DNA of 64,000 bases from NCBI GenBank assembly GCA_040954595.2, contig CM082577.2:11503654-11567653 (forward strand), read 5' to 3'. A program made the position numbers and the translations under genes. The stretch comes from Balanoglossus misakiensis. Its lineage: Eukaryota; Animalia; Hemichordata. Below the pieces are notes generated by a model. That model searched no databases, was not told the DNA's origin, and worked only from the letters and a program-made list of their open reading frames with translations. Below, in pieces: positions 18,421-60,768 of the stretch (the stretch's first letter is position 1; each line of letters starts with the position of its first letter).

Positions 18421-18769
18421 ATGGCGAGTAGACCAACACTCCTACTGGTGTTGTGTACCATTATCTACCAACAGCACTTCGAGTCTGTTGTAGGGCAGTC
18501 AACTGTCAGGGGAGAATATCAGTGCCTGAACCGACGCCATGATTGCTACAAGGATGACTCGTGTTCGTACACTTTCACTTTACCTCGGACGGATGGACAG
18601 GAGTGTCCAGCACTTCGAGATGCTATCCTAGATGTACAAGCACTGAAGAGAAAGATTGAGGAGTTAACACTTGGCAGTGACGAGCAGCGGGGTTTGATTG
18701 AAAGGCAACAACGGCTAATGGAGGAACTAAACGAAACGTTGGCAGAGTTGAAGAGTAACCTCACTTCAG
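18421..18769 (+). CDS. Orphan exon 1 (signal peptide, angiopoietin-like motif, coiled coil) of the EPTP family; either a truncated copy or the 5' exon of a chimera
   Basis: 349-bp ATG-to-donor exon nearly identical to 40781-41129 and 48724-49072. Homology to the duplicated units runs about 17887-18942 and stops at a MITE. No EPTP exon follows. Confidence 0.75.
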
Positions 18770-20764: not shown

Positions 20765-22197
20765 ATGGGCAAGTTCTGGAGTACATGGCGTCTGTCTGGT
20801 TATTCACCCACAACTTTGTTATACTCTATTTCTCTGGTCATCACATCAGAAATGTTTGAATGTTCCGTTCATTTCTAGAGAAAATACATGAAATATAGAT
20901 TCTAAAGTCACTCAGTTATACCCTTTACACTATACCTATTCCTATCCCTAACCACTGCAGCCCTAAGTTGTGGATGGAAATACAGTAAATATCTAGGCAA
21001 CAAACCTTATTCCAAAAAGTACAACTATTTACACATTTGGAATGCAAATCTACTGATAATCAGAACAATAGTTTTGTCCTCATTTATCAATACTGAAATC
21101 ATTTCTGTATGTTTTTCATTAGCTGATGATGGAATATTATCTGAAGACAGTGGTGATACATTTGCTGGTCAATCCATTACCGTACCACCATGGGGGATAG
21201 CAGTCATCATAATGATTGCTCTCATCATCATTGCACTATTCCTTTTCTTACTATTGGCATGTCGTAGAAGTGAAATGTAAGTTATTTGTGTCTTCTTATC
21301 AAAGTTTATTGGCTTCATACTTTTATTTAAATGCTCTCTTTGCAGACAATTGTGGCTCTGCAGTAGAGTAATAGTGGTGGAACGCCATTGCAATGAGTCT
21401 GTGCAATATCAAACCTAAATAATGTCTAAGTAAAACCAATAGATAGTATAAATATATTTTGTTTCTTGTCAACAGGGCTAATTATGATGATGAGAGGGCT
21501 GGAGCAGATCGCAGGAAAGGCAAACCAAATCTTCAATTAGATGAAGAAATTCCTGTTATTCCAGGTGATGACATGGATAGGACACCAGCCAGAGAAAATG
21601 AATATGGCTTCAACCCACCAAGTACATGTAGCAGCAGGTATGGAAAGTCATTTTAACAGTCGTCTGGCATGTGAACACATGTTAATGCAGAGCATGGTGC
21701 TGATTTTGTTAGTTTGTGTTTCCTACTGCCTGCAGTGTCCACATAAACATAAATTAAATTCTATTTCTAATCAAAGTTGAGAACTGCACATCAAGAACTT
21801 TATGTAGACCTCATATCCATTTAGTGGGTTTTTCGATGTCTCAAGATCTTTATGCCAACTCTAATTGAATCAAAATGCACTTTGATGACATGATGATTCA
21901 GTGGACTTGGCCATTAGATCATTGCTTCATTTACATAATTAGTGAATTAATGTTTGTAGGCACTATTTAAATAATAACACACGATAGCGAGGGCAATATT
22001 ATGATATTTAGCCTGCACGAGGGTTGGTGCTCTCTGACTATAATATTGATGATGCCCGAGCCGCAGACGAGGGTATTTGACTGTGCATTTGAGATTAATT
22101 ATATGATGTGTTAAATGTCAGTTATCCAAAAGTCTTATGTTTTGTTTGGCATTACAGATCAACAGTTGCAGAAGTCAACAGTTACGAGAATTCATAG
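20765..22197 (+). CDS. Small single-pass membrane protein with Tyr-motif cytoplasmic tail (119 aa if started at 20765)
   Basis: Phase-compatible exons 21123-21276 (TM WGIAVIIMIALIIIALFLFLLLAC then RR), 21476-21637 and 22158-22197 (STVAEVNSYENS-stop). The first exon is tentative: acaATGG followed by a GC donor gcaagt at 20769. Confidence 0.7.
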
Positions 22198-33505: not shown

Positions 33506-36500
33506 TTAATGGTTTAACTCAACTCCTGTCTCAAGATCCATCAGGAGCATGTGTTCCTCTTGCTGGTCTGGTTACAATTCATATCACATTATCTCGCCTC
33601 TCAAGTCTCATCTCACTATCAGATAATTCGGTGGGTACTCCAACTGTCTCTTTCAGTCTTTCAGAAAATCTTGTAGACTCTTTCTGGGGTCTACAATATT
33701 ACACTCAACAAATTGTTAAATTCATAGCATTTTATCTCACTTGCTCTTCGGATTGCAAATGCAAAGAAAAAAGCATATTGGGAGAATATTTTAATGCAAA
33801 TAAGACAACCATGCAATGTTTAATTTTAGCTTTATAGATTTATCTCATTTGCGTGAAAATATTCCTGCACTAAAGATACATCCATAAAGCTACAATGAAA
33901 CATCACATGGCTGTCACATCTGATTAGTGTCGCATAACGTGCCGGTGAGTTGCTCAAGATTGACAAAGTTGATTTTGTACTGTCACATGTATTCATAGTT
34001 CTAAGTACGGTCAGCGCAACAAGTTAGTTTCTACCGATACTACACACTGGCCACACAAGACAAAGTTTGTCAACCTTACCATTTGCCTTCATTTATTTTA
34101 CAATTTATTTCATTGCGTGGATTTTTAATGAAGTGACTCTTCAAAATTTTCAAATATATGTACATGTAGATTAGTTCAGTTAAAGCCTCCAGAGCTGCCA
34201 AATTTCACATATTTTTTTCAACAACAAAGTACTTTAATATATTCCCTATACTTTAAAATCCTCACCATTAAGCCATATTACTTGTATTTGCATCAGGTTT
34301 TCATCTCTTGGCGATGCATAACACGATAGCTGTGTACTGTTTGTATGGAGGATGATTAAATGGTGCGGCACCATTTTTAATACATAGTGTTTTCAAATCG
34401 CTACATACAGCCACAATCTGGCATCGATAAGGTGTTCATGTATACCTATCAGTAAGCTTATGTAGATGGACCAATTTAAGTTGGAAAATAAAGTCATTGA
34501 AATAATGCAAAAAGTGGCAGCTCTAGAGGCTAGTATAACTAGTATTTTATACTATAGCATATTGAGCATAACATCTTTTAAAACAAAAGCTTATGACTGT
34601 ATTTTCATCTTACCAACAGCTTTTAGTGGACGTGGGGCTGAACTTACTGATTGAGTGTATTTCCAGTTTTGGTTTTCATTGACAGTTCAGACAATTGTCC
34701 AGGACTTTCATCTTCTGCAAACCCGATTCAAGATTAAAGTTGCAATCAGCGTTGGCGGGGCTCAAGCGGCTCCCATGATAGCCAGCGAATGCAAAGTCTG
34801 TATAATCTGCTGTGGATACCAATACTAGTATATGGGAAAGTAGGTCGAAGGTCACCCGAGATCACCCAAATTTGGGCAAAACATGTTGACACCATACTGG
34901 TCCATGACCAACAAAAACCAAACCTCTAGCCCTATTGGCTAGCCTGGAATTAGATATGTGCATAATTAATGAGGTAACATGTAAGGCTCCGTTAGGTGTT
35001 CAATCCCTCCAAATGTTAAGTTTCTATCCTGTCTGGATGCCGAGATATGGGAAAGTAGGTCAAAGGTCTATGTCCAACAAAAACCAAACCTCCAACCCTT
35101 TTTGTTAGCCTGGAATTAGATATGCAGAAAAATAATGTATCAGAAATAGGTCAAAGGTCATTGCCAAAATTACCAAAATGCTACTTGCGCCTGTGGACGG
35201 GATCATCGTTTTTCTCTTTGTGGAAATATATTCGACACGATGTCGATGTATTTCGTGGAAGAAACAACAAATCTGGAAACTCACCAGGCGGTGTTGCAGG
35301 AGGACGGGGTGTTCAACGTACGTTGAACCTACGAAGTGCCGCTAGGGTTGAGACGTCACCCAACAACTGTGCCGGTACATGTTAGAAGCAGCCCAACTCG
35401 GCCCGTTGTCATGCGAGTCCAAAGAATTTACCCTAACTACAAGAATTCCGAGGACTAGACTCTTTTCCATCGTTTGATCGCCGGCAGTCTGGTATTGGTT
35501 GGCCCGACCAGAGGACGTCGCCTCGCAGTACCACCACCTGGCACGTGGACAGACGCGGACTGCTGCGACGTCGCTCTCACTCGCGGCCCAAAGTCAAGGC
35601 TTTTAGTAGGCGACCCAGTCTACGTTAAAGTGGTATATGCGCGTGAACATTCAGTGAAACAATTTATGCATGGTCTCTACCCTCTTATTCATTGTTGAGT
35701 CAACTTTTGCATACGTACAGTGTTGCATAATGTTTAGACAACTTTGGGCATGTAATATAATATTGTTCCAACGGTTCCTATTAATATACTTTTACCTGAA
35801 CAAATGTAACTGCAATAAGTTCTAAATTGAAATAGTATTGTTTGGCTACGTTTTGCTGCTCAAATTATTTGAAGGTGGTATGGCCCTCGTTGACATTTTC
35901 AAAAACGTGATAGCCTTCCGAATTTTCAAAGGCTTTGGTATATTAAAATGAGCTGTGTGTCATTTCGAAAACAGTGAACGCAACTACAGGTGTTTGACAT
36001 CGCGATAATTGCCGACGTCACACCATATCAGAAAAGCTCCGCGAAAGTGAAGCACTGTGATAGCACGGAGGGAGACAATTTATATATACGGAATGTCGTT
36101 TCCTTTTGAACGAATATGATGGTGTATGTTCTTGACAACCTCTGACAATCTCGTTTTTCATATTGATTTATTAAATAGTATCGATGCGATGGGTGATCGA
36201 GTCGAGTACTTTATTTTGTTCATATTCCTATGTGCAGCTACAATCAGAGGTTGATAATCATTGACTTTACCAATCGATCAGCTCATTTAAATGGACCATT
36301 CTAAGTTTGAAAAAAAATAATGAAAACAACGCGAACATGTCTATTTTCTGTTTGGCACAAGATGAGGTTATATTGCCCCAGTAAAACAGAGGTATTTTTT
36401 GCAGGGGGTATTAGAAAGGTCGTTAAATTCCATTTGCCAACATCAAAGTAATGCGGCTCGCTAATATAAGAACCTAGGTTACTGAAGCGATCAACTTGAA

Positions 36501-39430
36501 TAGGCAGACCTGTGGCAAACTTTTAACACCATTTTAAATCCCATGGTTCCGTGAAAGCAAGCATTCTTGTACGGCTTGCTATAACCTAAGGACATCGGGG
36601 AAAAGAATGCGTTCAAAATGGTACGGCTATCGGTGACAGATTTTCAGACAAAATGATAGTGCCCAAACTTTCGAAGTCTTTGCTGTTTAAAATGCATTGC
36701 GTGTGATTTCGGAAAGTCAGCACTGTTATCGCAAGGAAGGGTAGGAAACCGAATTTATTTTACTTCCGATATGAAGAACAGTAAAGTAGCGCCATTTGGG
36801 GATAAGGTAAGTGAGATCATGGACTTGAAAATTAGAATTGCAGTCGCACTCAATATGCTGATAATGAATGCATGACACAAATGTTTTTTTGTCAGTGTTT
36901 GCTTGCTATTTTGAAGTGCAATTTTATGTAGACCGTAATTTGGATGAGATTTATTCTCATATACCGGTACATTAAGTTCCACTATTTGTAACATTTGATA
37001 ACTTTTTCAGTAATTTTGATCAGTGTATGAAGCATGACTTCTTGTGTTCATAATCAGCATTGTTTTTGTTAAAATTTGTATTCAAGTCTGGAATTGAATG
37101 CATTTGTCAATAATAACAATTTTCTGTACCAAAAGTTACAGGTTTTTTTCTCTTTAATTGTAAGTCTTATATGTAGAACAGTGTAACACCAAAGCAGTTT
37201 TAAGATACTGAGAAAACTTTATTCATTGAAAAATAAACAATTATTTTGTTATTTTTACCTTAATCATTCAATACAAAATTGTGCTTGATGTTGAAAAACT
37301 TTCAATATTTTCTTTCTCTAAACCTACAAATTTGTACGCCAGATTAGCATGTTTCAAGAGGCATGAATTTAAAATACAATTGTTTTTTTATTTATTTAAA
37401 GTGAAAATACAGTTGTTTGTAAACTTGAATCTATATAGTCACCTATACGCTTTCCCAGAGGGTTTCCCTTATCCTCAAAAAAGGGGTTTTACCTCTGGGT
37501 TTTGGTGCGGGGTAACTTTTCAGTTCATCCAATAAAGTACATGAACCGCTACTCATGTAAAAATGACCTGTACTGTGTGTGTGTATGCATTTGGATGTGG
37601 TAGTTGGAATGCATGCTAGGTGGAATGGGTATGGAGACTAAACTAGAGTGGGTTAGGTGTGAGTGTGTGTAGAGAGCTGGTGGATTTTGTGCGTCCGTCA
37701 ACAATATACATGTAAAATTGAAAATTGTGTATCACAGTGATATTTGATGTGTAGATGTGATTTGGTGGCCGAATGTGAACTCGTTGACATGAAAGTGAAA
37801 TCAACACAGTAACCTCAAAATTGTGAAAATGCATTAAACCCTCTGGGAAGCTGAATTCGGAGGGAGTACAATGTATTGTTGGGGAGAGCAACAGTGGTGA
37901 AATAGCCAGACTGTTCTGTCAATACCCCCTAGTTACAGAGTCATTAACACCTGACCTTACCTAACAAATGGGAAAGGACGTGATTGCCATCGTAAATTCG
38001 ATATTGTTTTTCTTTTAATGATTCTCAATCTGCTCACGGGACATGCTGGCTTTCAAAGTCAAAGTCAGTGTCACTACGAGAGTAAGCGTTTGCTGAGTGA
38101 GATGGATAATTACCAGTTTGCGATTTCTCTGGGGATCAGGTCATGCGTCAACTGCGCTGTACAAGGTGTGGGCTGCAAATTGTTAAATAAATCAGATATA
38201 GCGACTAAAGTCGGTATCTTGGATGAAGCTGTAAACTGTCGAGGTAGAACACTTGACATGCTTGGCTGTTCTCCAGTCTTTTATGGCAACGTGGTATTTT
38301 GTTCACAAATACCTAAAATAGACTTGGGGTCTTCGGAATATACCGAGGTTTGATGCGTGTCTCATTCTTTTGTATTGATTCGAGGCAGCATGGTGGTAGA
38401 AACTGGTTTATCTACGATAAGCATTTTGTCGTCTTCATTATCTTAGTTTTTATCTGGCAATTCATAATCCTTGCCATGCTCACAGGTCAAAGTGACATTA
38501 CGATAAGATGGCTTGGGACATTATGCTGTATGACTGGTAATTTGCGTTGTGGATATGACGACCAGAAGGGCGGTTATTCATTTTCTTTTTCGAGGATATT
38601 CAGCTTTGATAACAGTTGACCATTCATGTCGGATTTTTGTTTTTTTTCAAATCAGACTATCCCCTTTATTTGTTGATTCAAGAGTTTTAATTGAGATTTC
38701 CTATTGGCTTCAAAAGCCACTGAGTTTCACTTTGTGTTTCATCTATAGTTTTCATCAGCGCTGAAACATTTGATTTCATGTTCTCCAAATCTGCAATCAT
38801 TTTAGAGGATGACTTTTTAAGAATTTCTATTTCTTTGCTCAGACTACTCACGTCAGATTCATGGCCCTGTTTCGTGGCAAGAATATCAGCCATTATAGAT
38901 GGCACATTGTCTTTCACAGACATGTCTGCGTGGTTCACAATGGTATGTTGAAGTTCAACATTTTCATTTTCGTCGTGTGCAGAATACAGGGGATTCATAG
39001 TTTGACTGTTGGTGAAGTGTCCTTGCTTCAACAACGGTGTAATAATTGAATAGTTCGTAGCAGTCTTCCAACAGCTTTTCGCCAACTGAAGCTTTCACGT
39101 TTCTACGATTGCAACTGCGCGCCAAAACTCTGTCTGACTTGTTAAAAATGTAAACACAGTATGATGAACATTTAAAACGCCACAGCAAAGCTAGCTAAAC
39201 CGTACATCTTTTTGTCTGAAGCGGGGGATCAACCCACCTCATCATGTTTATTTCATTCGCGGCGACATTATAGAGGCAATTCGGGATCTGGAAATTGTCA
39301 TGGCATACGTTTCTCCCTGCTCCCGGACAAGTCGAAGTACAAATTTCGAGTATAACCCTGATTTGATGCATTTCACAGAATCAAAGCCAAGTTTCTTCGT
39401 GTCTGTATTAGGAAAAAACTTTTTTAACTA

Positions 39431-40009
39431 TAGCTGCTGTTTGTTGCACTAGTTAGACCTTATCTGGAATATGGCAGCAGCATATGGAATCCCTATTTAA
39501 AGAAAGACATTGACTCAATTGAAAATGTTCAACGTCGTGCAACGAAGTTACTTCCCGGTTTAAATCAACTATCATATACTGAGCGTTTGGCGCGTTTGGA
39601 TTTACCATCACTGGCTTTTCGAAGACTACGTGGAGACCTTATTGAAATGTTTAAAATAATGACAGGAATTTACGATAAACGTGTTACTGATGGCCTATTT
39701 ACTCTCAGTCATATGCAGCATACAAGAGGACATTGCTATGAAGTGAATAAAGTACATTGCAAGACAAGTACCAGGAGTAACTTCTTCACAAATAGGATTA
39801 TTGATGTGTGGAATAATATGCCGGAAGCCTTCAAGAACCGTATTGACAATTTCCTCAGTAGTCAACCAATGAAATATGACTACTCCGTTGGATACATTCA
39901 TAGACCCGGACTGGCATAACAATCCAAGATGAATATTTAGTTGAGCTTAGAGGCACTGTGAAGAGCCTGCGCTCAATACCTACCTAACCTAACCTAACCT
40001 AACCTAACC
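39431..40009 (+). mobile_element. 5'-truncated CR1-clade LINE with (CCTAA)n tail, present in unit A only
   Basis: Frame 39434-39919 encodes LVRPYLEYGSSIWNPY..IENVQRRATK..RRLRGDLIEMFK..TRGH..FFTNRIIDVWN. TSD taacta at 39425-39430 and 40010-40015. Empty site at about 47951-47956. Confidence 0.93.
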
Positions 40010-40273
40010 TAACTAAAGGGGTGGATCAAAGTGATTTTATATGGGGGATATGCGCACAGTATTATGGGATACAGTAGTACAGTATGGTCGGTGTCAACAA
40101 GCACAGTGTCGTTATAGCGGGGGCTGCATCTGCGTGTATAATGACATAGAATACACAAAATACTGTATTGACTTACACACATTGTGGACAAGAAATATTT
40201 GAGAATGTCTTCATCTTTTAGGTTTTGAACTCCACAGTTCATGTAAAATTGACCGTGATACTTGTGTTACAGG

Positions 40274-40281
40274 TGACGTCA
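40274..40281. promoter_or_regulatory. Full CRE palindrome TGACGTCA about 500 bp upstream of the EPTP gene ATG
   Basis: Also present at 48217-48224; disrupted (tgatggtca) in the 18421 copy. Motif match only. Confidence 0.25.
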
Positions 40282-40780
40282 TAGTAGTCTACAAACCTTC
40301 CAAATGTTTACAGAGTAGTTTGCCCTTTTCAGCTGTCTTCGTTGGCATCAACCTCCAGCACAAACGGTTGTTTTCAAATACTTGTACTTTTTTTTTGAGA
40401 AACGACCTAATTACCTTTCTTTTACTTCATGTATATTGTACACGACTATGCACAAGCGTACATCATTTGCATTGGAATGTAGCGACTATTTATAGATATA
40501 CTGGAGCAAAGATGGTAAACAGCGACAAAGAAATCCTTTTTCCGGGTGCATGCGATTCTATTGTGGTGTATGTAAAAATCGACCTGTACATTTTGAGCTC
40601 ACACTTGTTTATACATGTAGGAATGGGGTCAGTGAATGTTCCACGACCTCCTCCACCTTTCCCAGGCCTTTGAAGTTTTTTTTGTTTCCTGTTGGTGTCG
40701 AAGGTGTACTTGCAGTCTGTACATTTAGTTCTCGCATTTCCTATACAAACATCACACCTGTGTAGAAATCCTGAGCTGCC

Positions 40781-42758
40781 ATGGCGAGTAGACCAACACT
40801 CCTACTGGTGTTGTGTACCATTATCTACCAACAGCGCTTCGTGTCTGTTGTAGGGCAGTCAACTGTCAGGGGAGAATATCGGTGCCTGAACCGACGCCAT
40901 GATTGCTACAAGGATAACTCGTGTTCGTACACTTTCACTTTACCTCGGACGGATGGACAGGAGTGTCCAGCACTTCGCGATGCTATCCTAGATGTACAAG
41001 CACTGAAGAGAAAGATTGAGGAGTTAACACTTGGCAGTGATGAGCAGCGGGGTTTGATTGAAAGGCAACAACGGCTAATGGAGGAACTAAACGAAACGTT
41101 GGCAGAGTTGAAGAGTGACCTCACTTCAGGTAGCTGAGCTGTAATTTACTTAAGCACACTTTATGATAAATTTCATTTTCTTAAGATACTAAACAGCTAA
41201 GCTGTATGTCTAGATGTTCCCAAACTAAGGAATGCAGTTTATTAATGGCAGATTATTATACTATTTATGTGCATTGGCCATTTCGGGATGACGCGTAAAT
41301 AGTGACGTGTTGCGTTCTTTAGCGGTGGTGCATTCAAGACTGCTGAACTCGTCTCCCCCAACATTCGACAATCGCCTCACCTGGACATCTTCAAGCAAAA
41401 TTTTAAGTCGTATTTCTTTTCCAACGTGTATTATTCGCATTGCTTAGATGAATTCTTAGCCTCCCAACAAACATCGCTAATAGATATTATATCATTCTAA
41501 TTGAACTTTTCCAAAATAATTTCTGTAGTATCTTTACGGTGGAAAATCTCAGCCTCTTATTATTTATATTGAATTAACTATACGTATTCAAATGTTAATG
41601 CCAATCAACGAATACAACATTTCTTTATTTTGTCCTGTCAAATGCATGACGTTAAGTTAACCAATCATACTCTTTTTGTTGTATACAGGGACATGTCTTG
41701 CAGTTAACAAAGACTTTTTGAAGTTTGAAAGCAGTCTAAATCTGACCGCGGTTACATCAGAAATCACAGAAACAAGTCTAATAGCTGGTTTGCATGCTTT
41801 TAACTCGGGCGGTAACACATATCTACAGGTCGCCACACCTGAGGAATTGTACGTTTACATGTTTTCGAGTGATCACGAGGCATTGGAAAAAATACAAACA
41901 GTAACAACAGAGGCATTGGTTAACCCTTGGATTGGCCCAGATTCCTTCCAAATGGATGAGCAACATTATGTTATTGACAGCGGAGACCAGACAAGAAGTA
42001 ATCATGTTTACTGGTGGAACGGAACACAGTTCTCTGAAGTTGACATTATCCAATTTCTCGGCTATACCACGTACACTCAAGCGAGCATGGCATGGTCGTT
42101 TGTACAAAGTCAGACATATGAATTGACCTTTCTGGCTAATGCGTTTTCTAGCACTTCAGATCTAGTAGAAAATAATAACATAGTTGTTTATATTTTGAAT
42201 GGCAGTCATTTCCAGTATTTTCAGGAAATCAATACAGGTCTGAATACGGAAGACCTTGAGTTTTTTCAACCCAACAACCAAGATATCTATCTTTGTCTCG
42301 GTGCCACGTTCAGCCCGGGAGATTATACATCGTTCGTTTACAAATATAATGCCTCGGTTTCCCAGTTTGTTCACCATCAAACTTTACCGGTGCAGGGTGC
42401 AACATCAGACATGTTAATTTTTGACATCCGGGATAATACATTCTTATTGCAAACAATGTACTGGTCTTTTTCTATTCTGTATACATGGAACACAACAACT
42501 TCTTCCTTTGAAGTCCATCAGGAAATTATAATAGAACATGGAAGACAGGCATGCTACGTCGAATACTGTAATCAACACTTCTTAGTGATTGTGACCTTGA
42601 ACGTCGGGTTCGTCGTTTATAAGTTGCGGGGCGACTATTTTCATGAGCACCAAGTCTTCCACACGTTCCAAGGTACGTGGGTGCACAAGTGTGACGTCTT
42701 CCGTGTAGATGGTGTTCAGTATTTGGCTGTCGATAAGATGACATACGTTCTGGTGTAA
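40781..42758 (+). CDS. Secreted angiopoietin-like-stalk / EPTP(EAR)-repeat beta-propeller protein, copy A, 472 aa, 2 coding exons
   Basis: Exons 40781-41129 and 41689-42758 (phase 1, GT-AG), total 1419 nt open. Hydrophobic N-terminus, CSYTFTLPRTDGQEC motif, heptad coiled coil. Repeats of the type S-x-[VI]-Y-x-[WY]-N...F-x-x-x-Q-x-[LI]...GA..D..F match the EPTP/EAR pattern of LGI/TSPEAR/ADGRV1 by eye. Confidence 0.85.
41310..41430 (+). mobile_element. Ancient L2-type LINE 3' fragment in the EPTP gene intron (also at ~49260-49375)
   Basis: Degenerate, frameshifted translation resembling RSFSVxAPRLWNSLP..IRQSPHLDIFKQNLKSYFF. Confidence 0.5.
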
Positions 42759-43327
42759 ATCTGTTTATGATTAGCCATCATAGTTAATTTCTTGGTTGTG
42801 ATATAGCGTGGAATCTGAAAACGAGAACAAATAGATACATGTATCGATGTGCAACAGTATAAACGTCAACCTGTTATAATATGTTGATCGTAGCAACTAT
42901 AATGAATTGTAGAAGGTCACTGCAAAGACCTTGCCCTACACAGATTATTTTTAATTGTATGTCATTTATGTTTTGTTTAATTTTGTTTTCAATATATTTA
43001 GTACCGTGTTTGTAATATAGGGCAATATATTAACTAAGTGTTTATGCTTTATGTAATTGTATGTTATGAAACAGGTGAATATATTACCTGAACAGAAATC
43101 TTTGATATTAGGCAACACTTTCAGCTCGACTTATATTTCATGAATCGATTTTAAAATCCTCTATAAAGTTTTGCAACAATACTGCAGTTTAGAAGATGGC
43201 TGCAAAGACCTTGCTTATGTTATACAGAATATTTTCAATTGTAAGTCTTCTATCTTTTATTTAATTTCATGATTTTGTTTTCAATATATTTAGTACCGTG
43301 TTTGTGTAATATAGGGCAATATATTAA

Positions 43328-43820
43328 AGGCACGTAAGCTGCAACTGGATAAAAAATCTCATATATGCTTTTAATTATATCTATTAAATGCTATTTCATG
43401 ATAATATATCAAGCTCAACACTTATTTATGACAAAATGGCCAAAAATTAAAGAAAAACGAAAATTCCTGAAATTTTTAAAAAAGTGCAATATTGCAATGA
43501 AAAATGAAAATCTGATGTCTCAGTGGTGTACATTTACTTCCATGAACTCAAGTGGATGAGATCATGTTTTATTTATGAAGTTTCACAACCGGAAATGCGA
43601 CATTTTCATTGTTTCTTTGTTTCTTTCATTTTCCCATGGCGGCCATAATCGCTTGCGGCAAAGCTTTATTATTTATCTGGTTAAAACTTGCATATGCACT
43701 CATATTTAGGGTTTATAATGCTTGTGTATAGTTCACTGCCTTCATCTGCATGGACTAATGGTAGTGCAGTGTGAAAAAAAAATTATGAAAATTATCCCAA
43801 AAGTTACAGCTTACGTGCCT
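43328..43820. mobile_element. TTAA-flanked MITE (Kolobok-like), unit A only
   Basis: TTAA|aggcacgtaagctg ... cagcttacgtgcct|TTAA. Empty site at 51634-51637. Confidence 0.9.
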
Positions 43821-43842
43821 TTAACTAAGTATTTATGCTTTA

Positions 43843-44271
43843 GGCCAGAGAGGAAAAAAATCTTGTTCATCGGATTTTTTGGACCAAGTTCCAGGAGCGG
43901 CGAGCGAATATTTTTATTTTTTATTTTTTATTTTTTTAGGCTGAAGGTAAACGCGGTTCTCTGGCATATTTGTACAGATGCCGACAAGGCGAGATAATTG
44001 TTTCCCTTTTTACCAGAAATATCTCAGTCAAAAACATTGATACAGTCATGTACTTGTAACTGAATTCAATACTATATTTCCCAACAACAACATAGGCCAT
44101 TACATTTACAGTAGGTGTTTGCACAACATATTCTGGCCACCAGTGGCAGTGACTAAGAATTTTGTAACACGGAAGTAGAATAGTTGCCGAGATCCAAAAA
44201 AAAAAAAAATTCCAAATCAGCCAAAGTAGAAGCGGCGATTCCGATGAACAATTTATTTTTTCTTCCTGGCC
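43843..44271. mobile_element. PIF/Harbinger-like MITE with TTA TSD, unit A only
   Basis: TTA|ggccag...gttcatcgg ... ccgatgaac...ctggcc|TTA. Empty site gctttatgtaa at about 51650-51660. Confidence 0.85.
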
Positions 44272-47200
44272 TTATGTAATTTTATGTTATGAAACAGGTG
44301 GATATATATTACCTGAAATCATGTTTAATCTTTGATATTAGGCAACACATTCAGCTCAGCTAATATTTCAGGAATCGATTTGAAAATCCTCTGAGGAACA
44401 ATAAGTAAAGAAAGTTTTGCAAATTACAAATTGTTGTTTGCATTTGTAAACTGTGTCGGTATGAACTAATCGATAACTAGATGTAATTGTTCTTGTTTGA
44501 CATCGCGATACTTGCCGATGTCACCCCATATCAGAAAAGCTCCTCAAAAGTGAAGCACTGTGATAGCACGGAAGGGGACAATATATATATACAACTGTAT
44601 ACGGATTGTTTCTTTTAAACGAATATGATGGTGTATGCACTTGACTATTTCGTTTCTCGCATTGATTTATTACATACAGATAGATAGACTGACTACCAGA
44701 ATAGCTTTCGACTCTTGAAATGGGTGATTGAGTACTTTCTTTTGTTCATATTTCTATGTACAGCTACAGTCAGAGGTTGATAATCATCGGGTTTACGAAT
44801 CGATTAGCTCATTTAAATGGACCATTCTAAGTTCGAAAAAAATAATGAAAACAACGCGAACATGTCTTTTTTCTGTTTGGCACAAGGTGAGGCTATATTG
44901 CCCCAGTAAAACACAGGAGGGGGGTATTAGAAAGGGTGTTAAATTCCATTTGCCAACTTCAAAGTAATGCGGCTTGCTTATATAAGAACCTAGGTTACTG
45001 AAGCGAGAAACTTGAATAGGCAGGCAAACTTTTAACACCATTTTAAACCCCATGGTTCCGTGAAAGCAAGCATTCTTGCATGGCTTGCAATAACCTAAGG
45101 ACAGCGGGGAAAAGAATGCGTTCAAAATGGTATGGCTATCGGTGACAGATTTTCAGACAATATGATAGTGCCCAAACTTTCAAAGTCCTTGCTGTTTAAC
45201 ATGTGTTGCGTGTGATTTCGGAAAGTCAGATAAGCTCCTCGAAAGTGAAGCACTGTTATCACAAGGAAGGGGAGGAAACCAAATTTATTTTACTTCCGAG
45301 ATGAAGAACAGTAAAGTAGCACCGTTTAGGGATAAGGTAAGTGAGATCATGGACTTGAAAATTAGAATTGCAGTCGCACTCAATATGCTGATAATGAATG
45401 CATGACACAAATGTTTTTTTGTCAGTGTTTGCTTGCTATTTTGAAGTGCAATTTTATGTAGACCGTAATTTGGATGAGATTTATTCTCATATACCGGTAC
45501 ATTAAGTTCCACTATTTGTAACATTTGATAACTTTTTCAGTAATTTTGATTAGTGCATGAAACATGACTTCTTGTGTACATAATCAGCATTGTTTTTGTT
45601 AAAATTTGTATTCAAGTTTGGAATTGAATGTATTTGTCAATAATAACAATTTTCTGTACGAAAAGTTACAGGTTTTTGCTCTTTAATTGTAAATCTTACA
45701 TGTAGAACAGTGTAACACCAAAGCTGTTTTTAGATACTGAGAAAACTTTATTCATTCAGAGATGAACCATTATTTTTTGTTATTTTTACCTTAATCTTTC
45801 AATACAAAATTTTGCTTGATGTTGTAAAAATTTCAATATTTTCTTTCTCTAAACCTACAAATTTGTACGCCAGATTAGCATGTTTCAAGAGGCATGAATA
45901 TAAAATACAATTGTTTTTTTATTTATTTAAAGTGAAAATACAGTTGTTTGTAAACTTGAATCTGTATAGTTACTTAGTTGATACGCTTTCCCAGAGGGTT
46001 TCCCTTATCCCGAAATAAGGGTTTTACCTCAGGGTTTTGATGCAGGGAAAATGTTCAGTTCACGCAATAAAGTATGTGATCCGCTTCTCACGTAAAAAAT
46101 GACCTGTATTGTGTGTATGTATTTGGATGTGGTAGTTGGAATGCATGCTTGGTGGAATGGGTATGGAGACTAGACTGGGTTAGGTGTGAGTGTGTGTAGA
46201 GAGCTGGTGGATTTTGTGCGTCCGTCAACAATATACATGTAAAATTGAAAATTGTGTATCACAGTGATATTTGATGTGTATGATGTGATTTGGTGGTTGG
46301 ATGTGAACTTGTTGACATGAAAGTGAAATCAACACAGAAACCTCAAAATTGTGGAAATACATTAACACCCTCTGGGAAGCTGAATTCAGAGGGAGTAAAA
46401 TGTGTTGTTTGGGAGAGCAACAGTGGCGAAATAGCCAGACTTGTCTGTCAATACCCCCTAGTTACAGAGTCATTAACACCTGACCTTACCTAACAAATGT
46501 AAAGGACGAGATTGCCATCGTAAATTCGATATTGTTTTTCTTTTAATGATTCTCAATCTGCTCACGGGACATGCTGGCTTTCAAAGTCAAAGTCAGTGTC
46601 ACTACGAGAGTAAGCGTTTGCTGAGTGAGATGGATAATTACCAGTTTGCGATTTCTCTGGGGATCAGGCCCTGCGTCAACTGCGCTGTACAAGGTGTGGG
46701 CTGCAAATTGTTAAATAAATCAGATATAGCGACTAAAGTCGGTATCTTGGATGAAGCTGTAAACTGTCGAGGTAGAACACTTGACATGCTTGGCTGTTCT
46801 CCAGTCTTTTATGGCAACGTGGTATTTTGTTCACAAATACCTAAAATAGACTTGGGGTCTTCGGAATATATCGAGGTTTGATGCGTGTCTCATTCTTTTG
46901 TATTGATTCGAGGCAGCATGGTGGTAGAAACTGGTTTATCTACGATAAGCATTTTGTCGTCTTCATTATCTTAGTTTTTATCTGGCAATTCATAATCCTT
47001 GCCATGCTCACAGGTCAAAGTGACATCACGATAAGATGGCTTGGGACATTATGCTGTATGACTGGTAATTTGTGTTGTGGATATGACGACCAGAAGGGCG
47101 GTTATTCATTTTCTTTTTCGAGGATATTCAGCTTTGATAACAGTTGACCATTCATGTCGGATCGTTGTTTTTTTCAAATCAGACTATCCCCTTTATTTGT

Positions 47201-48723
47201 TGATTCAAGAGTTTTAATTGAGATTTCCTATTGGCTTCAAAAGTCACTGAGTTTCACTTTGTGTTTCATCTATAGTTTCATCAGCGCTGAAACATTTGAT
47301 TTCATGTTCTCCAAATCTGCAATCATTTTAGAGGATGACTTTTTAAGAATTTCTATTTCTTTGCTCAGACTACTCACGTCAGATTCATGGCCCTGTTTCG
47401 TGGCAAGAATATCAGCCATTATAGATGGCACATTGTCTTTCACAGACATGTCTGCGTGGTTCACAATGGTATGTTGAAGTTCAACATTTTCATTTTCGTC
47501 GTGTGCAGAATACAGGGGATTCATAGTTTGACTGTTGGTGAAGTGTCCTTGCTTCAACAACGGTGTAATAATTGAATAGTTCGTAGCAGTCTTCCAACAG
47601 CTTTTCGCCAACTGAAGCTTTCACGTTTCTACGATTGCAACTGCGCGCCAAAACTCTGTCTGACTTGTTAAAAATGTAAACACAGTATGATGAACATTTA
47701 AAACGCCACAGCAAAGCTAGCTAAACCGTACATCTTTTTGTCTGAAGAGGGGGATCAACCCACCTCATCATGTTAATTTCATTCGCGGCGACATTATAGA
47801 GGCAATTCGGGATCTGGAAATTGTCATGGCATACGTTTCTCCCTGCTCCCGGACAAGTCGAAGTACAAATTTCGAGTATAACCCTGATTTGATGCATTTC
47901 ACAGAATCAAAGCCAAGTTTCTTCGTGTCTGTATTAGGAAAAAACTTTTTTAACTAAAGGGATGGATCAAAGTGATTTTATATGGGGGATATGCGCACAG
48001 TATTATGGGATACAGTAATACAGTATGGTCGGTGTCAACAAGCACAGTGTCGTTATAGCAGGGGGACTGCATCTGCGTGTATAATGACATAGAATACACA
48101 AAATACTGTAATGACTTACACACATTCTGGACAAGAAATATTTGAGAATGTCTTCATCTTTTAGGTTTTGAACTCCACAGTTCATGTAAAATTGACCGTG
48201 ATACTTGTGTTACAGGTGACGTCATAGTAGTCTACAAACCTTCCAAATGTTTACAGAGTAGTTTGCCCTTTTCAGCTGTCTCCGTTGGCATCAACCTCCA
48301 GCACAAACGGTTGTTTTCAAATACTTGTACTTTTTTTTTGAGAAACGACCTAATTACCTTTCTTTTACTTCATGTATATTGTACACGACTATGCACAAGC
48401 GTACATCATTTGCATTGGAATGTAGCGACTATTTATAGATATACTGGAGCAAAGATGGTAAACAGCGACAAAGAAATCCTTTTTCCGGGTGCATGCGATT
48501 CTATTGTGGTGTATGTAAAAATCGACCTGTACATTTTGAGCTCACACTTGTTTATACATGTAGGAATGGGGTCAGTGAATGTTCCACGACCTCCTCCACC
48601 TTTCCCAGGCCTTTGAACTTTTTTTTGTTTCCTGTTGGTGTCGAAGGTGTACTTGCAGTCTGTACATTTAGTTCTCGCATTTCCTATACATACATCACAC
48701 CTGTGTAGAAATCCTAAGCTGCC

Positions 48724-50738
48724 ATGGCTAGTATCCCAACACTCCTACTGGTGTTGTGTACCATTATCTACCAACAGCGCTTCGAGTCTGTTGTAGGGCA
48801 GTCAACTGTCAGGGGAGAATATCGGTGCCTAGACCGACGCCATGATTGCTACAAGGACGACTCGTGTTCGTACACTTTCACTTTACCTCGGACGGATGGA
48901 CAGGAGTGTCCAGCACTTCGCGATGCTATCCTAGATGTACAAGCACTGAAGAGAGAGAATGAGGAGTTAAAACTTGTCAGTGACGAGCAGCGGGGTTTGA
49001 TTGAAAGGCAACAACGACTAATGGAGGAACTGAACGAAACGTTGGCAGAGTTGAAGAGTGACCTCACTTCAGGTAGCTGAGCTGTAATTTATTAAAACAT
49101 ACTTTAAACGATTAAGATAAATTTCATTATCTTAAGATACTAAACAGCTAAGCTGTATGTCTAGATGTTCCCAAACTAAGGAATGCAGTTTATTCATGGC
49201 AGATTATTATACTATTCATGTGCATTGGCCATTTCGGGATGACACATAAATAGTGACGTGTTGCATTCTTTAACGGTGGTGCATTCAAGACTGCTGAACT
49301 CGTGTCCCCCAACATTCGTCACTCGCCTCACCATCTTCAAGCAAAATTTTAAGTCATATTTCTTTTCCAACTCGTATTATTTGCATTGTTTAGATGAATT
49401 CTTAGCCTCCCAACAAACATCGCTAATAGATATTATCACATTCTAATTGAATTTTTCCAAAATAATTTCTGTAGTATCTTTACGGTGGAAAATCACAGCC
49501 TCTTATTATTTATATTGAATTAACCATACGTATTCAAATGTTAATGCCAATCAACGAATACAACATTTCTTTATTTTGTCCTGTCAAATGCAATCACTGA
49601 AGTTAAGTTAACACAATCATACTCTTTTTTGTTTTATACAGGCACATGTCTTGCAGTTAACAAAGACTTTTTGAAGTTTGAAAGCCGTCTAAATCTGACT
49701 GTGGTTACATCAGAAATCACACAAACAAGTGTCATAAAAGGTTTGCATGCTTTCAACTCGGGCGGTAAGACATATCTACAGGTCGCCACACCTGAGGAAT
49801 TGTACATTTACATGTTCTCGAGTGATCACGAAGCATTGGAAAAAATACAAACAGTAAAAATAGAGATTGGTTGGGCAACAAATCCCCCTTGGACCGGCCC
49901 AGATTCCTTTCAAATGGATGAGCAACATTATGTTATCGACAGCGCACAGCAGCAGGCAAGAAGTAATCATGTTTACTGGTGGAACGGAACACATTTCACT
50001 GAAGTTGACATTATCCAATTTCTCGGCCTTACCTGGAAGACTGAAATAAGCATGGCATGGTCGTTTGTACAAAGTAAGACATATGGAGTGACCTTTCTGG
50101 CTAACGCCTTTTCTAGTCCTTCAGAATTAGCAGAAAATGATAACATAATTGTTTATATTTTGAATGGCAGTCATTTCCAGTATTTTCAGGAAATCAACAC
50201 AGGTATGAATACGGGAGACCTTGATTTTTTTCAACCCAACAACCAAGATATCTATCTTTGTCTCGGTGCCACGTTCAGCCCGGGAGATTATACATCGTTC
50301 GTTTACAAGTATAATGCCTCGATTTCCCAGTTTGTTCACCATCAAAGTTTACCTGTGCAGGGTGCAACAGAAGACATGTTAATTTTTGACATCCGTGATA
50401 AGATATTCTTATTGCAAACAATGTACGAGTCGACTACTTATACGAGTTTCTCTCTTCTGTATACATGGAACACAACAACTTCTTCCTTTGAAGTTCGTCA
50501 GAAAATAATTAATGAAATTGGAGGACAGGCGTGCTACGTCGAGTACTGTGATCAACACTTCTTAGTGATTGTGAGCTCATTCGTCGGTTTCACCGTGTAC
50601 AAGTTGCGGGGCGACTATTTTCATGAGCATCAAGTCTTTCACACGTTTCAAGTTACGTTAATGTACAAGTGTGACGTCTTCCGTGTAGATGGTGTTCAGT
50701 ATTTGGCTGTCAATGAGATGACATACGTTCTGGTGTAA
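48724..50738 (+). CDS. Secreted angiopoietin-like-stalk / EPTP(EAR)-repeat beta-propeller protein, copy B, 481 aa, 2 coding exons
   Basis: Exons 48724-49072 and 49642-50738 (phase 1), total 1446 nt open. Paralog of 40781-42758. Confidence 0.85.
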
Positions 50739-50909
50739 ATCTGTTTATGATAAGCCATCATCGTTAATTTCTCGGTCGTCTGCAATTAGATTACAATGTA
50801 TAAGATCGTGATATAGCGTGGAATCTAAAAACGAGAAAAAGTAGATACATTTGTCAATGTGCAACGGTGTAAACGTTAACTTGTTATGATATGTTGGTCG
50901 TAGCAACTA

Positions 50910-51800
50910 TAATGAATTTTCGAAGATCACTACAAAGACCTTGCCTATGTTATACAGATTATTTTTAATTGTAAGTTCCTTCTCGTTTATTTAATTTTGT
51001 TTTCAATGTATTTAGTAAGGTGCTTGGAATATTGGACAATGTATTTATGCTTTATGTAATTTTATGTTATGAAACAGGTGAATATATATTACCTGAAATC
51101 ATGTTTAATCTTTGATATTAGGCAACACTTTCAGCTCAGCTAATATTTCAGGAATCGATTTGAAAATCCTCTGAGGAACAATAAGTAAAGAAAGTTTTGC
51201 AACTATACTGAAGTTTAGAAGATCACTGCAAAGACCTTGCCTATGTCATACAGAAAATGTTCAATTGTAAGTCCTTTATGTTTTATTTAATTTTGTTTTC
51301 AATATATTTAGTACCGTGTTTGTAATATAGGGCAATATATTAACTAAGTGTTTATGCTTTATGTAATTGTATGTTATGAAACAGGTGAATATATTACCTG
51401 AACAGAAATCTTTGATATTAGGCAACACTTTCAGCTCGACTTATATTTCATGAATCGATTTTAAAATCCTCTATAAAGTTTTGCAACAATACTGCAGTTT
51501 AGAAGATGACTGCAAAGACCTTGCTTATGTTATACAGAATATTTTCAATTGTAAGTCGTCTATCTTTTATTTAATTTCATGATTTTGTTTTCAATATATT
51601 TAGTACCGTGTTTGTGTAATATAGGGCAATATATTAACTGGGTATTTATGCTTTATGTAATTTTATGTTATGAAACAGGTGAATATATTACCTGAAATCA
51701 TGTTTAATCTTTGATATTAGGCAACACATTCAGCTCAGCTAATATTTCAGGAATCGATTTTAAAATCCTCTGAGTAACAAAAAGTAAATAAAGTTTTGCA
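50910..51800 (+). repeat. About 290-bp tandem repeat, 3 copies, downstream of EPTP gene B (2 copies in unit A from ~42900)
   Basis: Close variants of gaagatcactgcaaagaccttgc recur at ~50922, ~51218 and ~51502, and at ~42911 and ~43192 in unit A. Confidence 0.85.
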
Positions 51801-52212
51801 AATTCTAAATTGAACTTGTTGTTCGCATTTGTAAACTGCGTCGGTATGAACTACTCGATAACTAGATGTAATTCTTCTTGTTTGACATTGCGATAATTGC
51901 TGACGTCACCCCATATCAGAAAAGCTCCTCGAAAGTGAAGCACTGTGATAGCACGGAAGGAGACAATATATATATATATATTAAATGTACACGGATTGTT
52001 TCTTTTGAACGAATATGATGGTGTATGCACTTGACTATCTCGTTTCTCGCATTGATGTATTACATACAGATAGATAGAATGACTGACTACCAGAATAGTT
52101 ATCGACTCTTGAAATAGGTGATTGAGTGCTTTATTTTGTTCATATTTCTATGTAAAGCTACAATCAGAGGTTGATAATATGTTTGGCTTTACCAATCGTT
52201 TAGCTCATTTAA

Positions 52213-52524
52213 AGCGGGTAGCTCGTCTCACACGCATGCGCGTAACTTCCGAGCAAATTTTCCGTTCGATGCATTCAAATAGTGGACTGCCTTCGCTTCC
52301 TTCCATATATTAAATTATTTCATGCGCACCGTATAAGTAGATTCTGGTTTTGTCCCTCCTTTTCACCCAAGCTAGTGTCTTTTCCCGATCTCCGACACAG
52401 ATTATAATCGCCGCCATCTTCTCTGTTGTTAGGACAGAGCACTGCCTTATGGGATTGACTGTTCACTAAACGTCTGTAGCCAGCGGCTACAGTTGGAACT
52501 TGCGTGTGAGACGAGCTACCCGCT
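52213..52524. mobile_element. 312-bp TTAA-flanked MITE with 24-bp perfect TIRs
   Basis: TTAA|agcgggtagctcgtctcacacgca ... tgcgtgtgagacgagctacccgct|TTAA. Empty sites at 36287-36290 and 44813-44816. Confidence 0.92.
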
Positions 52525-55460: not shown

Positions 55461-55874
55461 GTAAACTCCAACAAAAGACAGAACGATTCGGTGCTGATGA
55501 CTTTTTCTCTTTACGCTTTGTCCATGTGTGCCACATTTCCAACTTTATGAGTAACCCTGAAAATATGAGTATTGTTTTCCATCAAAGGGGAAGTTACACA
55601 TAGTGTCGTTTCCAATATTCACTCTCAGTGTGTGTGTGTGTGGGGGGGGGGGGGTGTTTTCGTCATGTACTGTTGAGGCGTTTGACAAGAAAACAAAATC
55701 AAGAAAAGGATGACACCAAGACAATTGGTACTCGAATTTCAACCACGACGTATCCAGCGATTTTGCAAAGTAGGGTATAATTAATAGAAGACGCCTTTCG
55801 TGCTCCAAATCGTGTTGTCTGTACTTCTACTTAAAATTATTGCTTTAAAATCTGTAATCATGTTATCTTATTAG

Positions 55875-56303
55875 AATTGGTTCGAGTGCGAGCTTCAAAC
55901 ATCGACCCGTTGCGAATCAATGGGAGTTTTGACGTTGTCATGGGCGAAACCAACAAGTTTCTTCTGTCGCTGCTACTGGCTACAGCAAGCAGCAACACAG
56001 GATTCATATCGGGTCAAGCGAAGGATCTGTTCAAAGTTGAGCTGTTCGTCTCCGCTTCGAGCAAAGCTAACAACGCCAATGGTGACAGGTACGAAGCGAA
56101 TATTACGTCCGGTGAAATAACCCTCCAATCGAGCACAGTTGTCGCGATCGCAGCCGCCGAAAATATTGACCTCTCATCCGGGACCTGTGCTAACTTCTCT
56201 TACATCTGCGCCGAGGTGTCGCCGGCAGAACATTCTGGCTGGATTTGGGACGGGTCGGTTAGTCTCCTTGGCCCCGCGTGTCAGCCTTTTCGTTCTTGTG
56301 GAA
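55875..56303 (+). CDS. About 143-aa extracellular beta-rich, 4-Cys domain exon of pentraxin gene B (tentatively ARIS-like)
   Basis: 429-bp phase 1-1 exon (ttattag ... a|gtaagt), GC-rich coding-like composition. LFKVELFVS...GDRY...DLSSGTCANFSYICAEV...CQPFRSC. The family label is from memory and unverified. Confidence 0.75.
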
Positions 56304-56504
56304 GTAAGTATTAGTGCGTGTCTGTAGATTATCAGAAATATGCATCATTGGAAAAAATATACTTTGCAGCAGACAAAGCGTAGCTTCATTTTTATCTCAT
56401 TTCAAATCTGCTTTGAAATAACTTCTATTGGCTGACAGTATAACCAAAAACATTCAAAACAATGAAGATTTAACTAATGTTCCAGTAGGTACAATATACA
56501 CTAT

Positions 56505-58426: not shown

Positions 58427-59023
58427 CTAAGAGAAATACTCTTGAATTACTTTCAACTCAAACGGATGTTGCTGTTCAAATCGATGTCCCTGATTTGACA
58501 AATGTGACTGCATGTCTCTGGGTCAAAGCTGTTTCGCCAAAAGCAACGGCAACATTGGTTTCTTACTGTGTCAGCCTTTCCAACTGTAACGAGTTCGTCT
58601 TGTATGGTACAACCTCTCTCAAACTTTACGTCAAAGAGGAAGGCGCTCGGACAGGATTGGGGGTAGATGATGGCGCTTGGCATCATATGTGCGTGACATG
58701 GTCCTCAAGTGGTGGAAACTGGGCAAGTTACCATAATGGTGACTTGTATCTGACTGGAGATGGTTTAGCGTCTGGTGAGACTATAAGAACTAATGGGACA
58801 TTGGTGTTAGGTCAAGAACAGGATGACCGGAGGGGTGGATATAACGAGTCACAAGCATTTGTTGGCAGCATCACTCAATTCAACATGTGGTCCAGAGTCT
58901 TAACAGATGGGGAAGTTGCCATGGTAGCACAAGACTGCTCAATTGGAGGAGATGTCTTTACTTGGAATACTGCTTCTCTCTACATGTCAGCTAATGCAGA
59001 GCTGGGAAATAGCAATGTTTGCT
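58427..59023 (+). CDS. Pentraxin domain exon B1
   Basis: 597-bp phase 1-1 exon with HHMCVTWSS and LGQEQD motifs. Confidence 0.92.
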
Positions 59024-59132
59024 GTAAGTTATGTCTTAAGATATGATGAAAAAATGATGAACCCAACTATATAGAATATTACAGTATAGTATTTGGTGCC
59101 ATCAAGAGAGGCATTGTTCATATCGATTGCAC

Positions 59133-59202
59133 GTCTTTGCTTGGAATACTGCTTCTCTCTACATGTCAGCTAATGCAGAGCTGGGAAAGAGTGATGTTTG
59201 TG
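59133..59202 (+). pseudogene. 3' remnant of a deleted pentraxin exon
   Basis: Encodes VFAWNTASLYMSANAELGKSDVC followed by gtaag, with no acceptor. Confidence 0.85.
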
Positions 59203-59368
59203 GTAAGTTTCATTTAGAGTTCAACCATTTGATGCCCCAAACATAAAAGAATAACACGAAAATACTATAGTACTTAAAATGCCTGTTTAAAAATTAAACC
59301 AATCCAAATATCATAACTATAATGGATTTACATTTTATAACAAACTTGTCTGTCTTTCCACGTTTCAG

Positions 59369-59965
59369 CTAAGGGTAACACTCTTGAATTACTTTCAACT
59401 CAAACGGATGTTGCTGTTCAAATCAATGTCCCTGATTTGACAGCTGTGACTGCGTGTCTCTGGGCCAAAGCTGATTCGCCAAAAGAAAATGCAACATTGG
59501 TTTCTTACTGTGTCAGCCGATCTAGCTGCAACGAGTTTCTCTTGTATGGTACAACCTCTCTGAAACTTCACGTCAAACAGAAAAGCGCCAAGACAGGATT
59601 GGGGGTAGATGATGGCGCGTGGCATCATATGTGCGTGACATGGTCCTCAAGTGGTGGAAACTGGGCAAGTTACCATGATGGTGAATTGTTAAGCAGCGGT
59701 CAAGGTTTAGTGTCTGGTCAGAACATCAGAACAGGTGGGACATTGGTGTTAGGTCAAGACCAAGATGACCGGAGAGGTGGATATGACGAATCACAGGCAT
59801 TTGTTGGCAGCTTCACTCAATTCAATATGTGGTCCAGAGTTTTGACAGATGTGGAAGTTGCGATGGTGGCACAAGACTGCTCAATTGGAGGAGATATCTT
59901 TGCTTGGAATACTGCTTCTCTCTACATGTCAGCAAATGCGTATCTTGGAAAGAGCCGTGTTTGCT
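59369..59965 (+). CDS. Pentraxin domain exon B2
   Basis: 597-bp phase 1-1 exon with the GQDQD variant of the motif. Confidence 0.92.
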
Positions 59966-60137
59966 GTAAGTTATGTTTTTAATTAGAGTTGAACCTCTTG
60001 ATCCCCTAAACATATGAGAATAATACGAAAATACTAGTAGTTCAAAATTGCCTGTCTTAACTTTAAATCAATCCAAACCTCACAGCTATAATGACTTCGC
60101 ATTTTATAACAAACTTTTCTATCTTTCCATCTTTCAG

Positions 60138-60734
60138 CTAAGGGAAACACTCTTGAATTACTTTCAACTCAAACGGATGTTGCTGTTCAAATCAATGTCC
60201 CTGATTTGACAGCTGTGACTGCGTGTCTCTGGGTCAAAGCTGTTTCGCCAAAAGAAACGGCAGCATTGGTTTCTTACTGTGTCATCCAGTCCAGCTGTAA
60301 CGAGTTCCTCTTGTATGGTACAACCCATATGGACATTCATGTCAAAGAGAAGAGCGTTAAGACAGAATTGGGTGTAGATGATGGTGCCTGGCATCATATG
60401 TGTGTAACATGGTCCTCAAGTGGTGGAAAGTGGGCAAGTTACCATAATGGTGACTTCTATCAGAGTGGAGATGGTTTAGCGTCTAGTGAGACTATAGAAA
60501 CTGGTGGGACATTGGTGTTAGGTCAAGAACAGGATGACCGGAGGGGTGGATATGTTGAGTCACAAGCATTTGTTGGCAGTATCACTCAATTCAACATGTG
60601 GTCCAGAGTCTTAACAGATGGGCAAGTTGCGATGGTTGCACAAGACTGCTCAATTGGAGGAGATGTCTTTACTTGGAATACTGCTTCTCTCTACATATCA
60701 GCTAATGCGGATCTTGGAAAGAGCGATGTTTGTT
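60138..60734 (+). CDS. Pentraxin domain exon B3
   Basis: 597-bp phase 1-1 exon, open. Confidence 0.92.
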
Positions 60735-60768
60735 GTAAGTTTATGTTTTAATTAGAGTTCAACCACTT

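Follow-up and report, generated by a model that had tools for sequence, protein, structure and literature searches.

Two neighbouring genes of the acorn worm Balanoglossus misakiensis raise the question of why tandem copies should be almost identical upstream of their coding sequence but differ in dense clusters within one exon. Both lie in a stretch of 64,000 nucleotides (assembly GCA_040954595.2, contig CM082577.2, positions 11,503,654 to 11,567,653 of the forward strand), which is referred to as the window and in which all positions are counted from the first letter. Each gene (A and B) is intact, has two exons separated by a phase-1 GT-AG intron and encodes a protein of 472 (A) or 481 (B) amino acids. 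A first-pass annotation had attributed the clusters to loops on one face of a propeller, diversified by selection on an immune, allorecognition or gamete-recognition protein. Here the replacements are found to concentrate on one predicted propeller face, the loops of which have likely been under diversifying selection. The units and exons concerned are as follows.

35991..44493, plus strand: tandem unit A (~8.5 kb), from self-BLAST and alignment.
44494..52213, plus strand: tandem unit B, from self-BLAST and alignment, end approximate.
40781..41129, plus strand: exon 1 of gene A, with predicted signal peptide, four-cysteine head and coiled coil, and a phase-1 GT donor.
41689..42758, plus strand: exon 2 of gene A, the entire predicted seven-bladed EPTP/EAR propeller, with AG acceptor and stop.
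48724..49072, plus strand: exon 1 of gene B.
49642..50738, plus strand: exon 2 of gene B, an EPTP propeller with nine residues more than A; the faster-evolving copy.

A and B are EPTP-domain proteins. Both exon-2 products pass the curated cut-off of 21 of Pfam EPTP (PF03736), at 22.2 and 26.1 bits, and six EPTP repeats were detected with a custom profile. The AlphaFold2 model of the B propeller, built from a 45-row alignment, contains 28 strands (mean pLDDT 89.7), predicted to form seven four-stranded blades with an N-terminal strand closing blade 7. A single-sequence search of solved structures returned 0 matches; searched as a profile against solved structures, the family matches LGI1 (E 7e-16), and ranks 1 to 7 of the Foldseek search are all LGI1 chains (TM 0.74-0.76, 13-14% identity).

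Between A and B, exon 2 carries 107 substitutions in 1,070 aligned bases, with a replacement in 57 of 355 codons, together with three indels (9, 3 and 15 nt; 27 nt in total) that are all in frame and whose extra residues are all in B. The seven peptide pairs that had been quoted as examples can all be found in the proteins translated from 41691-42758 and 49644-50738, and the clusters that they were taken from are real: replacements are more clustered than expected by chance (permutation p 0.006 and 0.008), as are codons with at least two changes (p 1e-4 and 2.5e-4), and changes that are only synonymous show weak clustering or none (p 0.04 and 0.40). At 20 of the 27 polarisable sites, among the 57 that differ, the derived residue is in B (p 0.019), with branch lengths of 0.17 for B and 0.04 for A.

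Codons were assigned to top loops (d-a and b-c), bottom loops (a-b and c-d) or core from the strand list, blind to the variable sites, so that the loop classes rest on predicted secondary structure and propeller topology. Changed codons number 31 of 86 in the top loops, 5 of 41 in the bottom loops, 21 of 217 in strands and 0 of 11 at the N terminus, and the difference between top and bottom loops is significant in all six partitions (Fisher p 0.004-0.018). Codons with multiple changes are distributed still more unevenly, with 15 of 20 in top loops and 0 in bottom loops. With one flanking residue included on counting, at least one change is seen in 11 of 14 top loops, compared with 6 of 13 bottom turns. 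All three indels are at top loops, with one partly assigned to a strand end; a distribution of this kind is unremarkable among loops alone (p 0.31). On the predicted structure, the variable residues are thus not scattered, and all seven quoted pairs fall in inter-blade (d-a) or b-c loops of one face, as had been proposed. The accompanying claim that the strands between them are conserved holds relative to the top loops, and not for the 21 strand codons and six bottom turns that differ. Three top loops are referred to below or stand out for their changes.

41907..41939, plus strand: top loop d1-a2 of A, the most variable loop (49860-49901 in B).
42054..42080, plus strand: top loop d2-a3 of A.
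50430..50444, plus strand: top loop b5-c5 of B, site of the 15-nt in-frame indel.

A three-class fit gave ratios of nonsynonymous to synonymous rates (dN/dS) of 2.0 for top loops (95% profile interval ~1.2-3.4; p 0.006 against 1), 0.38 for bottom loops and 0.37 for the core, at a dS of 0.144. Across 18 settings (three codon-frequency models, three loop widths, near-indel codons retained or removed), top dN/dS was 1.17-2.01 and above 1 in 18 of 18, and heterogeneity among the classes was significant in every one (p 5e-5 or less). Allowing for 1-4% double-nucleotide mutations left top dN/dS at 1.8-1.9 (p 0.014-0.029), and the flanking DNA has no excess of doublets (8 against 6.2 expected, 2 against 1.3, 0 against 1.9). 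Nonsynonymous divergence in top loops (42.7 of 197 sites, 21.6%) far exceeds that of the intron (27 of 552, 4.9%) and of the far upstream DNA (139 of 1,966, 7%); both a top-loop ratio above 1 and a divergence above that of non-coding DNA, on which the first-pass annotation had staked its reading, are therefore present.

Several results weigh against selection on the top loops. Their dN/dS is significantly above 1 in only 6 of the 18 settings, a value of 1 being unrejected in the other 12; it falls to 1.6-1.7 (p 0.06-0.09) without the near-indel codons, to 1.2-1.4 if each loop end is extended by two strand residues, and to 1.45 (p 0.20) if the doublet rate is left free. Top-loop nonsynonymous divergence compared with all exon-2 synonymous divergence gives p 0.058, and how high the synonymous peak stands is uncertain, because four-fold sites alone (8 of 112) show no difference from the intron (p 0.35) and all synonymous sites taken together do (p 3e-5). 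Part of the top-loop excess is ordinary loop freedom, since these loops are longer, have lower pLDDT and are the most variable class against distant homologues as well (1.7-2.5 times the core, a saturated ratio and hence a weak control for the A-B top/core ratio of 4.4). Word-index homologue searches yielded 1, 2 and 2 proteins, too few and too distant for site models.

These results, along with a whole-exon dN/dS of 0.6-0.7, would fit relaxed constraint combined with gene conversion, by which long top loops drift near-neutrally, core and bottom are constrained, and converted flanks make the exon look like a peak. Such an account, under which the locus would be a tandem duplicate of the usual kind, its loops relaxed and a conversion tract beside them, is possible though on balance rather unlikely; it has to accommodate a top-loop point estimate above 1 in every setting, and the concentration of multi-change codons on top, none at the bottom, beside flanks without a doublet excess. 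As two sequences cannot settle dN/dS, relaxation is retained as an alternative, and diversifying selection on the top loops is, from the substitution pattern, likely; the earlier claim to that effect stands in the direction of the estimates and not in their significance, which is lost in most settings.

Further versions of the loops were found in sequencing reads, two runs of one sample containing this DNA. In run X1, 41816-42130 is represented by four versions of loop d1-a2 (one identical to A and three with in-frame insertions of 9, 9 and 12 nt) and by four versions of loop d2-a3 (that of A and three others), alleles and paralogues being indistinguishable here. With gene B included, the window and this sample together contain at least five versions of d1-a2 and of d2-a3. 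Four versions per loop imply at least two loci, provided that the sample comes from a single animal. Hand annotation of 40 of the 52 variant rows gave 29 nonsynonymous, 3 synonymous and 8 ambiguous beside indels, and a share of 29 of 32 unambiguous rows is not what relaxation alone would lead one to expect; nor is the fact that all six indels observed (three between A and B, three in reads) keep the frame. Among the non-B versions, 12 of 30 top codons are changed as against 12 of 76 others (p 0.011) and 1 of 14 bottom codons (p 0.035). With the 12 rows for 41769-41815 added, the comparison of top with other codons is 18 of 45 against 16 of 86 (p 0.011). Two features of the reads lean towards relaxation instead: over this wider stretch from 41769 the top-bottom difference is not significant (18 of 45 against 3 of 16; p 0.22), and the most divergent extra copy, with 45 substitutions in 384 bases, also alters strands and bottom turns (by hand count, 10 of 45 top, 3 of 12 bottom and 8 of 67 strand codons visible), so that core residues change in it.

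The upstream DNA tells a different history from the coding exons. Its near-identity, as described in the first-pass annotation, holds for about 37922-40780 (19 of 2,193 bases differ in 38001-40780) and breaks down in 35991-38000, where the 7% divergence given above applies (p 9e-28); for exon 1 the description needs qualifying, since A and B differ there at 15 of 351 bases and, in the protein, at 8 of 117 residues. A third, orphan copy of the head exon (C) allows the ancestry of these differences to be followed.

37922..40780, no strand assigned: ~1% divergent block common to A and B (46451-48723 in B), from alignment; likely a gene-conversion tract.
18421..18769, plus strand: orphan third head exon copy (C), open frame, GT donor intact.
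39434..40009, plus strand: 576-bp insertion in unit A only, with a short-repeat tail, from alignment.

With C as the third sequence, 36 upstream sites are unique to C and 3 to A or B, while in exon 1 only 4 are unique to C and 15 to A or B, 12 of these to B (p 8e-8), and the switch of ancestry is located at the start codon. The near-identical block is thus likely a conversion tract that spared the coding DNA and not the mark of a recent duplication. Because it was likely homogenised, the block understates the age of the duplication, and, as conversion confounds the comparison, upstream DNA was rejected as a neutral yardstick. The mosaic flank is also what relaxation with conversion would leave. 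Divergence peaks beside homogenised DNA are described under gene conversion in the red/green opsin genes (PMC3924837), and as in A and B a homogenised non-coding flank there adjoins a diverged coding exon; unlike in the opsins, the divergence of A and B extends across 11 loops on a single face, and the copies concerned number more than two.

An assembly artefact, in which A and B would be haplotypes or a chimeric join and not tandem paralogues, is very unlikely as an explanation of the whole. What speaks for it is that read depth over the ~1% block corresponds to roughly one copy in the runs, depth being no measure of copy number here, and that no piece matching B is seen for 41816-42130, where 16 of 31 pieces are listed, which proves no absence; the block itself may contain an assembly error. 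Still, four versions per loop exceed one diploid locus if the sample is one animal, the units carry private insertions and 7% far-flank divergence, and the loop pattern would be real even were A and B alleles. As for the insertions and repeats themselves, the 576-bp insertion, which we take to resemble the 3' fragment of a retroelement, has no Pfam match; a coiled-coil open reading frame fragment on the minus strand (38687-39094 in A, 47270-47620 in B) lies within the homogenised block of each unit, presumably resembling a piece of retroelement ORF1, and gives generic coiled-coil Pfam matches only.

Which partner the variable face might meet can be approached through LGI1, a human protein linked to epilepsy. 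Nine LGI1 residues that contact ADAM22 are named in PMC5906670. They were mapped by hand through the profile alignment, with Cys260 and Cys286 as anchors, and every one of the nine belongs to a b-c loop, a d-a loop or the beginning of strand a. The variable face of A and B is therefore likely equivalent to the ADAM22-binding face of LGI1 and, by analogy, likely binds a ligand. Four of five N-glycan sequons of the propeller are at bottom c-d turns in both copies, the fifth borders the first top loop and none lies in a top loop; a glycan-free, fast-changing face suggests a changing partner.

The same comparison lends something to another account, namely that A and B are endogenous ligands akin to LGI or olfactomedin proteins, their propellers binding host receptors or matrix and the duplicates diverging once towards new host partners. 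Among solved structures, the closest relative is a ligand that binds its host receptor through the same face, the asymmetric rate of A and B fits neofunctionalisation, and the layout of head, coil and propeller parallels that of olfactomedin-1 (PMC4463452). Among olfactomedin-1 orthologues, however, no surface is more conserved than the top face, according to the same source, and here at least five versions of two loops occur, which makes a single shift of host partner unlikely. LGI1-4 (PDB 5y2z, 9kzc) share with A and B the secreted type and a C-terminal seven-bladed EPTP propeller closed by an N-terminal strand, and differ from them at 13-14% identity in having a leucine-rich repeat (LRR) domain in place of a cysteine head and long helix; A and B have tandem copies and a variable face, while the LGI face is fixed. 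Olfactomedin-1 and myocilin likewise combine a cysteine region, a coiled coil and a propeller with glycans off the top face (PMC4463452), but that propeller is a five-bladed OLF domain with a conserved top face, where that of A and B is seven-bladed EPTP with a variable one.

The exon 1 product has a short hydrophobic N terminus, a signal peptide being predicted there from hydropathy, followed by four cysteines, which are invariant in 8 of 8 aligned rows, and a heptad region. Relatives share this head. The nearest named ones are proteins of Ptychodera flava at 40-44% identity, of which P0004, P0053 and P0003, uncharacterized gene models and not demonstrated transcripts, belong to the same propeller subfamily as A and B (support 100/99), P0004 and P0053 having the same head as well. 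In the model of P0004, the region equivalent to exon 1 is a low-confidence hairpin and a 61-residue helix. Two copies of 90 residues of head and coiled coil, modelled without an alignment, gave a self-association score of 0.03 against a mark of 0.32, which counts neither for nor against an oligomer. P0004 and P0053, named as isoforms X1 and X2 and located on contigs of equal length, have 123 N-terminal residues in common and diverge from the point equivalent to the A/B intron; their propellers are identical at 64 of 190 positions, that of P0053 being truncated. P0003 places a similar propeller behind a predicted membrane anchor, with no head. Among gene models, the more distant P0006, P0012 and P0024 keep the order of head, coil and propeller, and EPTP is joined to a C-type lectin domain in P0008 and to C1q in P0005. 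The last, of 3,096 amino acids with at least 25 EPTP repeats and a C-terminal C1q, contains a stretch whose score against gene A is exceeded only by two P. flava proteins.

Membership in other known families was considered and rejected. TSPEAR carries an N-terminal laminin-G/TSP-N domain, for which exon 1 and P0004 have no Pfam match. Olfactomedin and myocilin are set apart by the five-bladed OLF propeller, and angiopoietins and fibrinogen-related proteins (FREPs) by a fibrinogen-related domain, which was not matched; atlas structure matches of the head region to Noelin-1 and to a fibrinogen-family protein were both under the bar, the olfactomedin N terminus being the nearest, and for Noelin-1 there was no Pfam match in the head region. 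The LGI family is defined by an N-terminal LRR domain (PMC3691968), and exon 1 has no LRR match, the homologue model showing the hairpin and helix there.

Multiple related copies with exchange are in evidence, namely A, B, the orphan C and three further versions of two loops, with the mosaic ancestry described above, and the orphan C and the truncated P0053 are signs of birth and death. Taken together, the explanation preferred, at about even chances, is that A and B are predicted secreted oligomeric propellers whose top loops have been diversified by selection and which recognise a changing foreign surface of a microbe or parasite. The cysteine head and coiled coil would bundle several seven-bladed EPTP propellers, and the top-face loops would bind the changing foreign partner. 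Duplication, point changes, loop indels that keep the frame and conversion would all contribute to diversification, conversion homogenising the DNA on the promoter side and leaving the coding exons distinct. Coding exons kept apart, with B changing fastest, are as expected if a new specificity is protected. FREPs, ficolins and collectins combine an oligomerising stalk with a terminal recognition domain, tandem copies, conversion and a variable binding surface; A and B, as putative oligomers, would resemble them in layout, with an EPTP propeller as recognition domain in place of a fibrinogen, lectin or immunoglobulin domain.

Gamete-recognition and allorecognition proteins, too, are often positively selected, and a protein of either kind under sexual or self/non-self selection would agree with predicted secretion, one variable face, a likely broadcast-spawning marine animal and, in P. 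flava, a predicted membrane anchor replacing the head of P0003. This is nevertheless a somewhat remote prospect, marginally more so than an endogenous ligand: birth and death in multiple copies with conversion is more typical of immune genes than of bindin- or lysin-like ones. Defence against a foreign surface is preferred over gametes on this multi-copy pattern and on parallels with other systems.

More broadly, and quite tentatively, acorn worms may use an LGI-type propeller as a variable innate recognition module, with a constant head and interchangeable single-exon propellers. Equally tentative is the corollary that propellers would be interchanged by duplication here and by alternative last-exon splicing in P. 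flava, selection and conversion together yielding a germline repertoire. The EPTP fold has so far been characterised mainly from vertebrate neural and ectodermal ligands. No description of an invertebrate hypervariable EPTP family was found in the literature listings searched, hemichordate genome supplements, which may list an expansion, being outside their scope, and a search on the head region likewise gave nothing relevant; each ingredient is known, and the combination appears undescribed. If the recognition reading is true, the EPTP propeller would be added to the few scaffolds diversified for recognition in animals, here within a phylum that has a poorly described immune repertoire, and the receptor-binding face of LGI would be serving as the variable surface. 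The claim is directly testable, as a single exon encodes the entire domain and the positions of the variable loops are mapped.

Some other features of the window touch the same genes. The orphan head C is nearer to A than B is (7 against 15 private differences in exon 1) and has no propeller exon of its own within the 64-kb window; from its intact donor, splicing to either of the two propeller exons, which lie 23-31 kb further downstream, would be possible. At 21123-21640 are exons for a single-pass membrane segment and a cytoplasmic tail, whose phase-1 acceptor fits head exon C and also the pentraxin exons, so that C joined to them could give a membrane-anchored head without a propeller. The pentraxin-domain exons, six in tandem (three at 144-2261 and three at 58429-60745), are spaced ~750-950 bp apart with phase-1 splice sites; the first three differ from one another by 0.3-1.7% and the last three by 10-13%. 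An open frame of 159 codons at 55835-56314, with a cysteine-containing end and a GT donor, is likely an exon of a secreted protein, although no convincing Pfam match was obtained for it. A broken non-LTR (long terminal repeat) retroelement with a reverse-transcriptase match occupies 16347-17758 on the minus strand, and an inverted repeat of ~1.5 kb, 94% identical and made of a 170-bp satellite, lies at 9009-13017.

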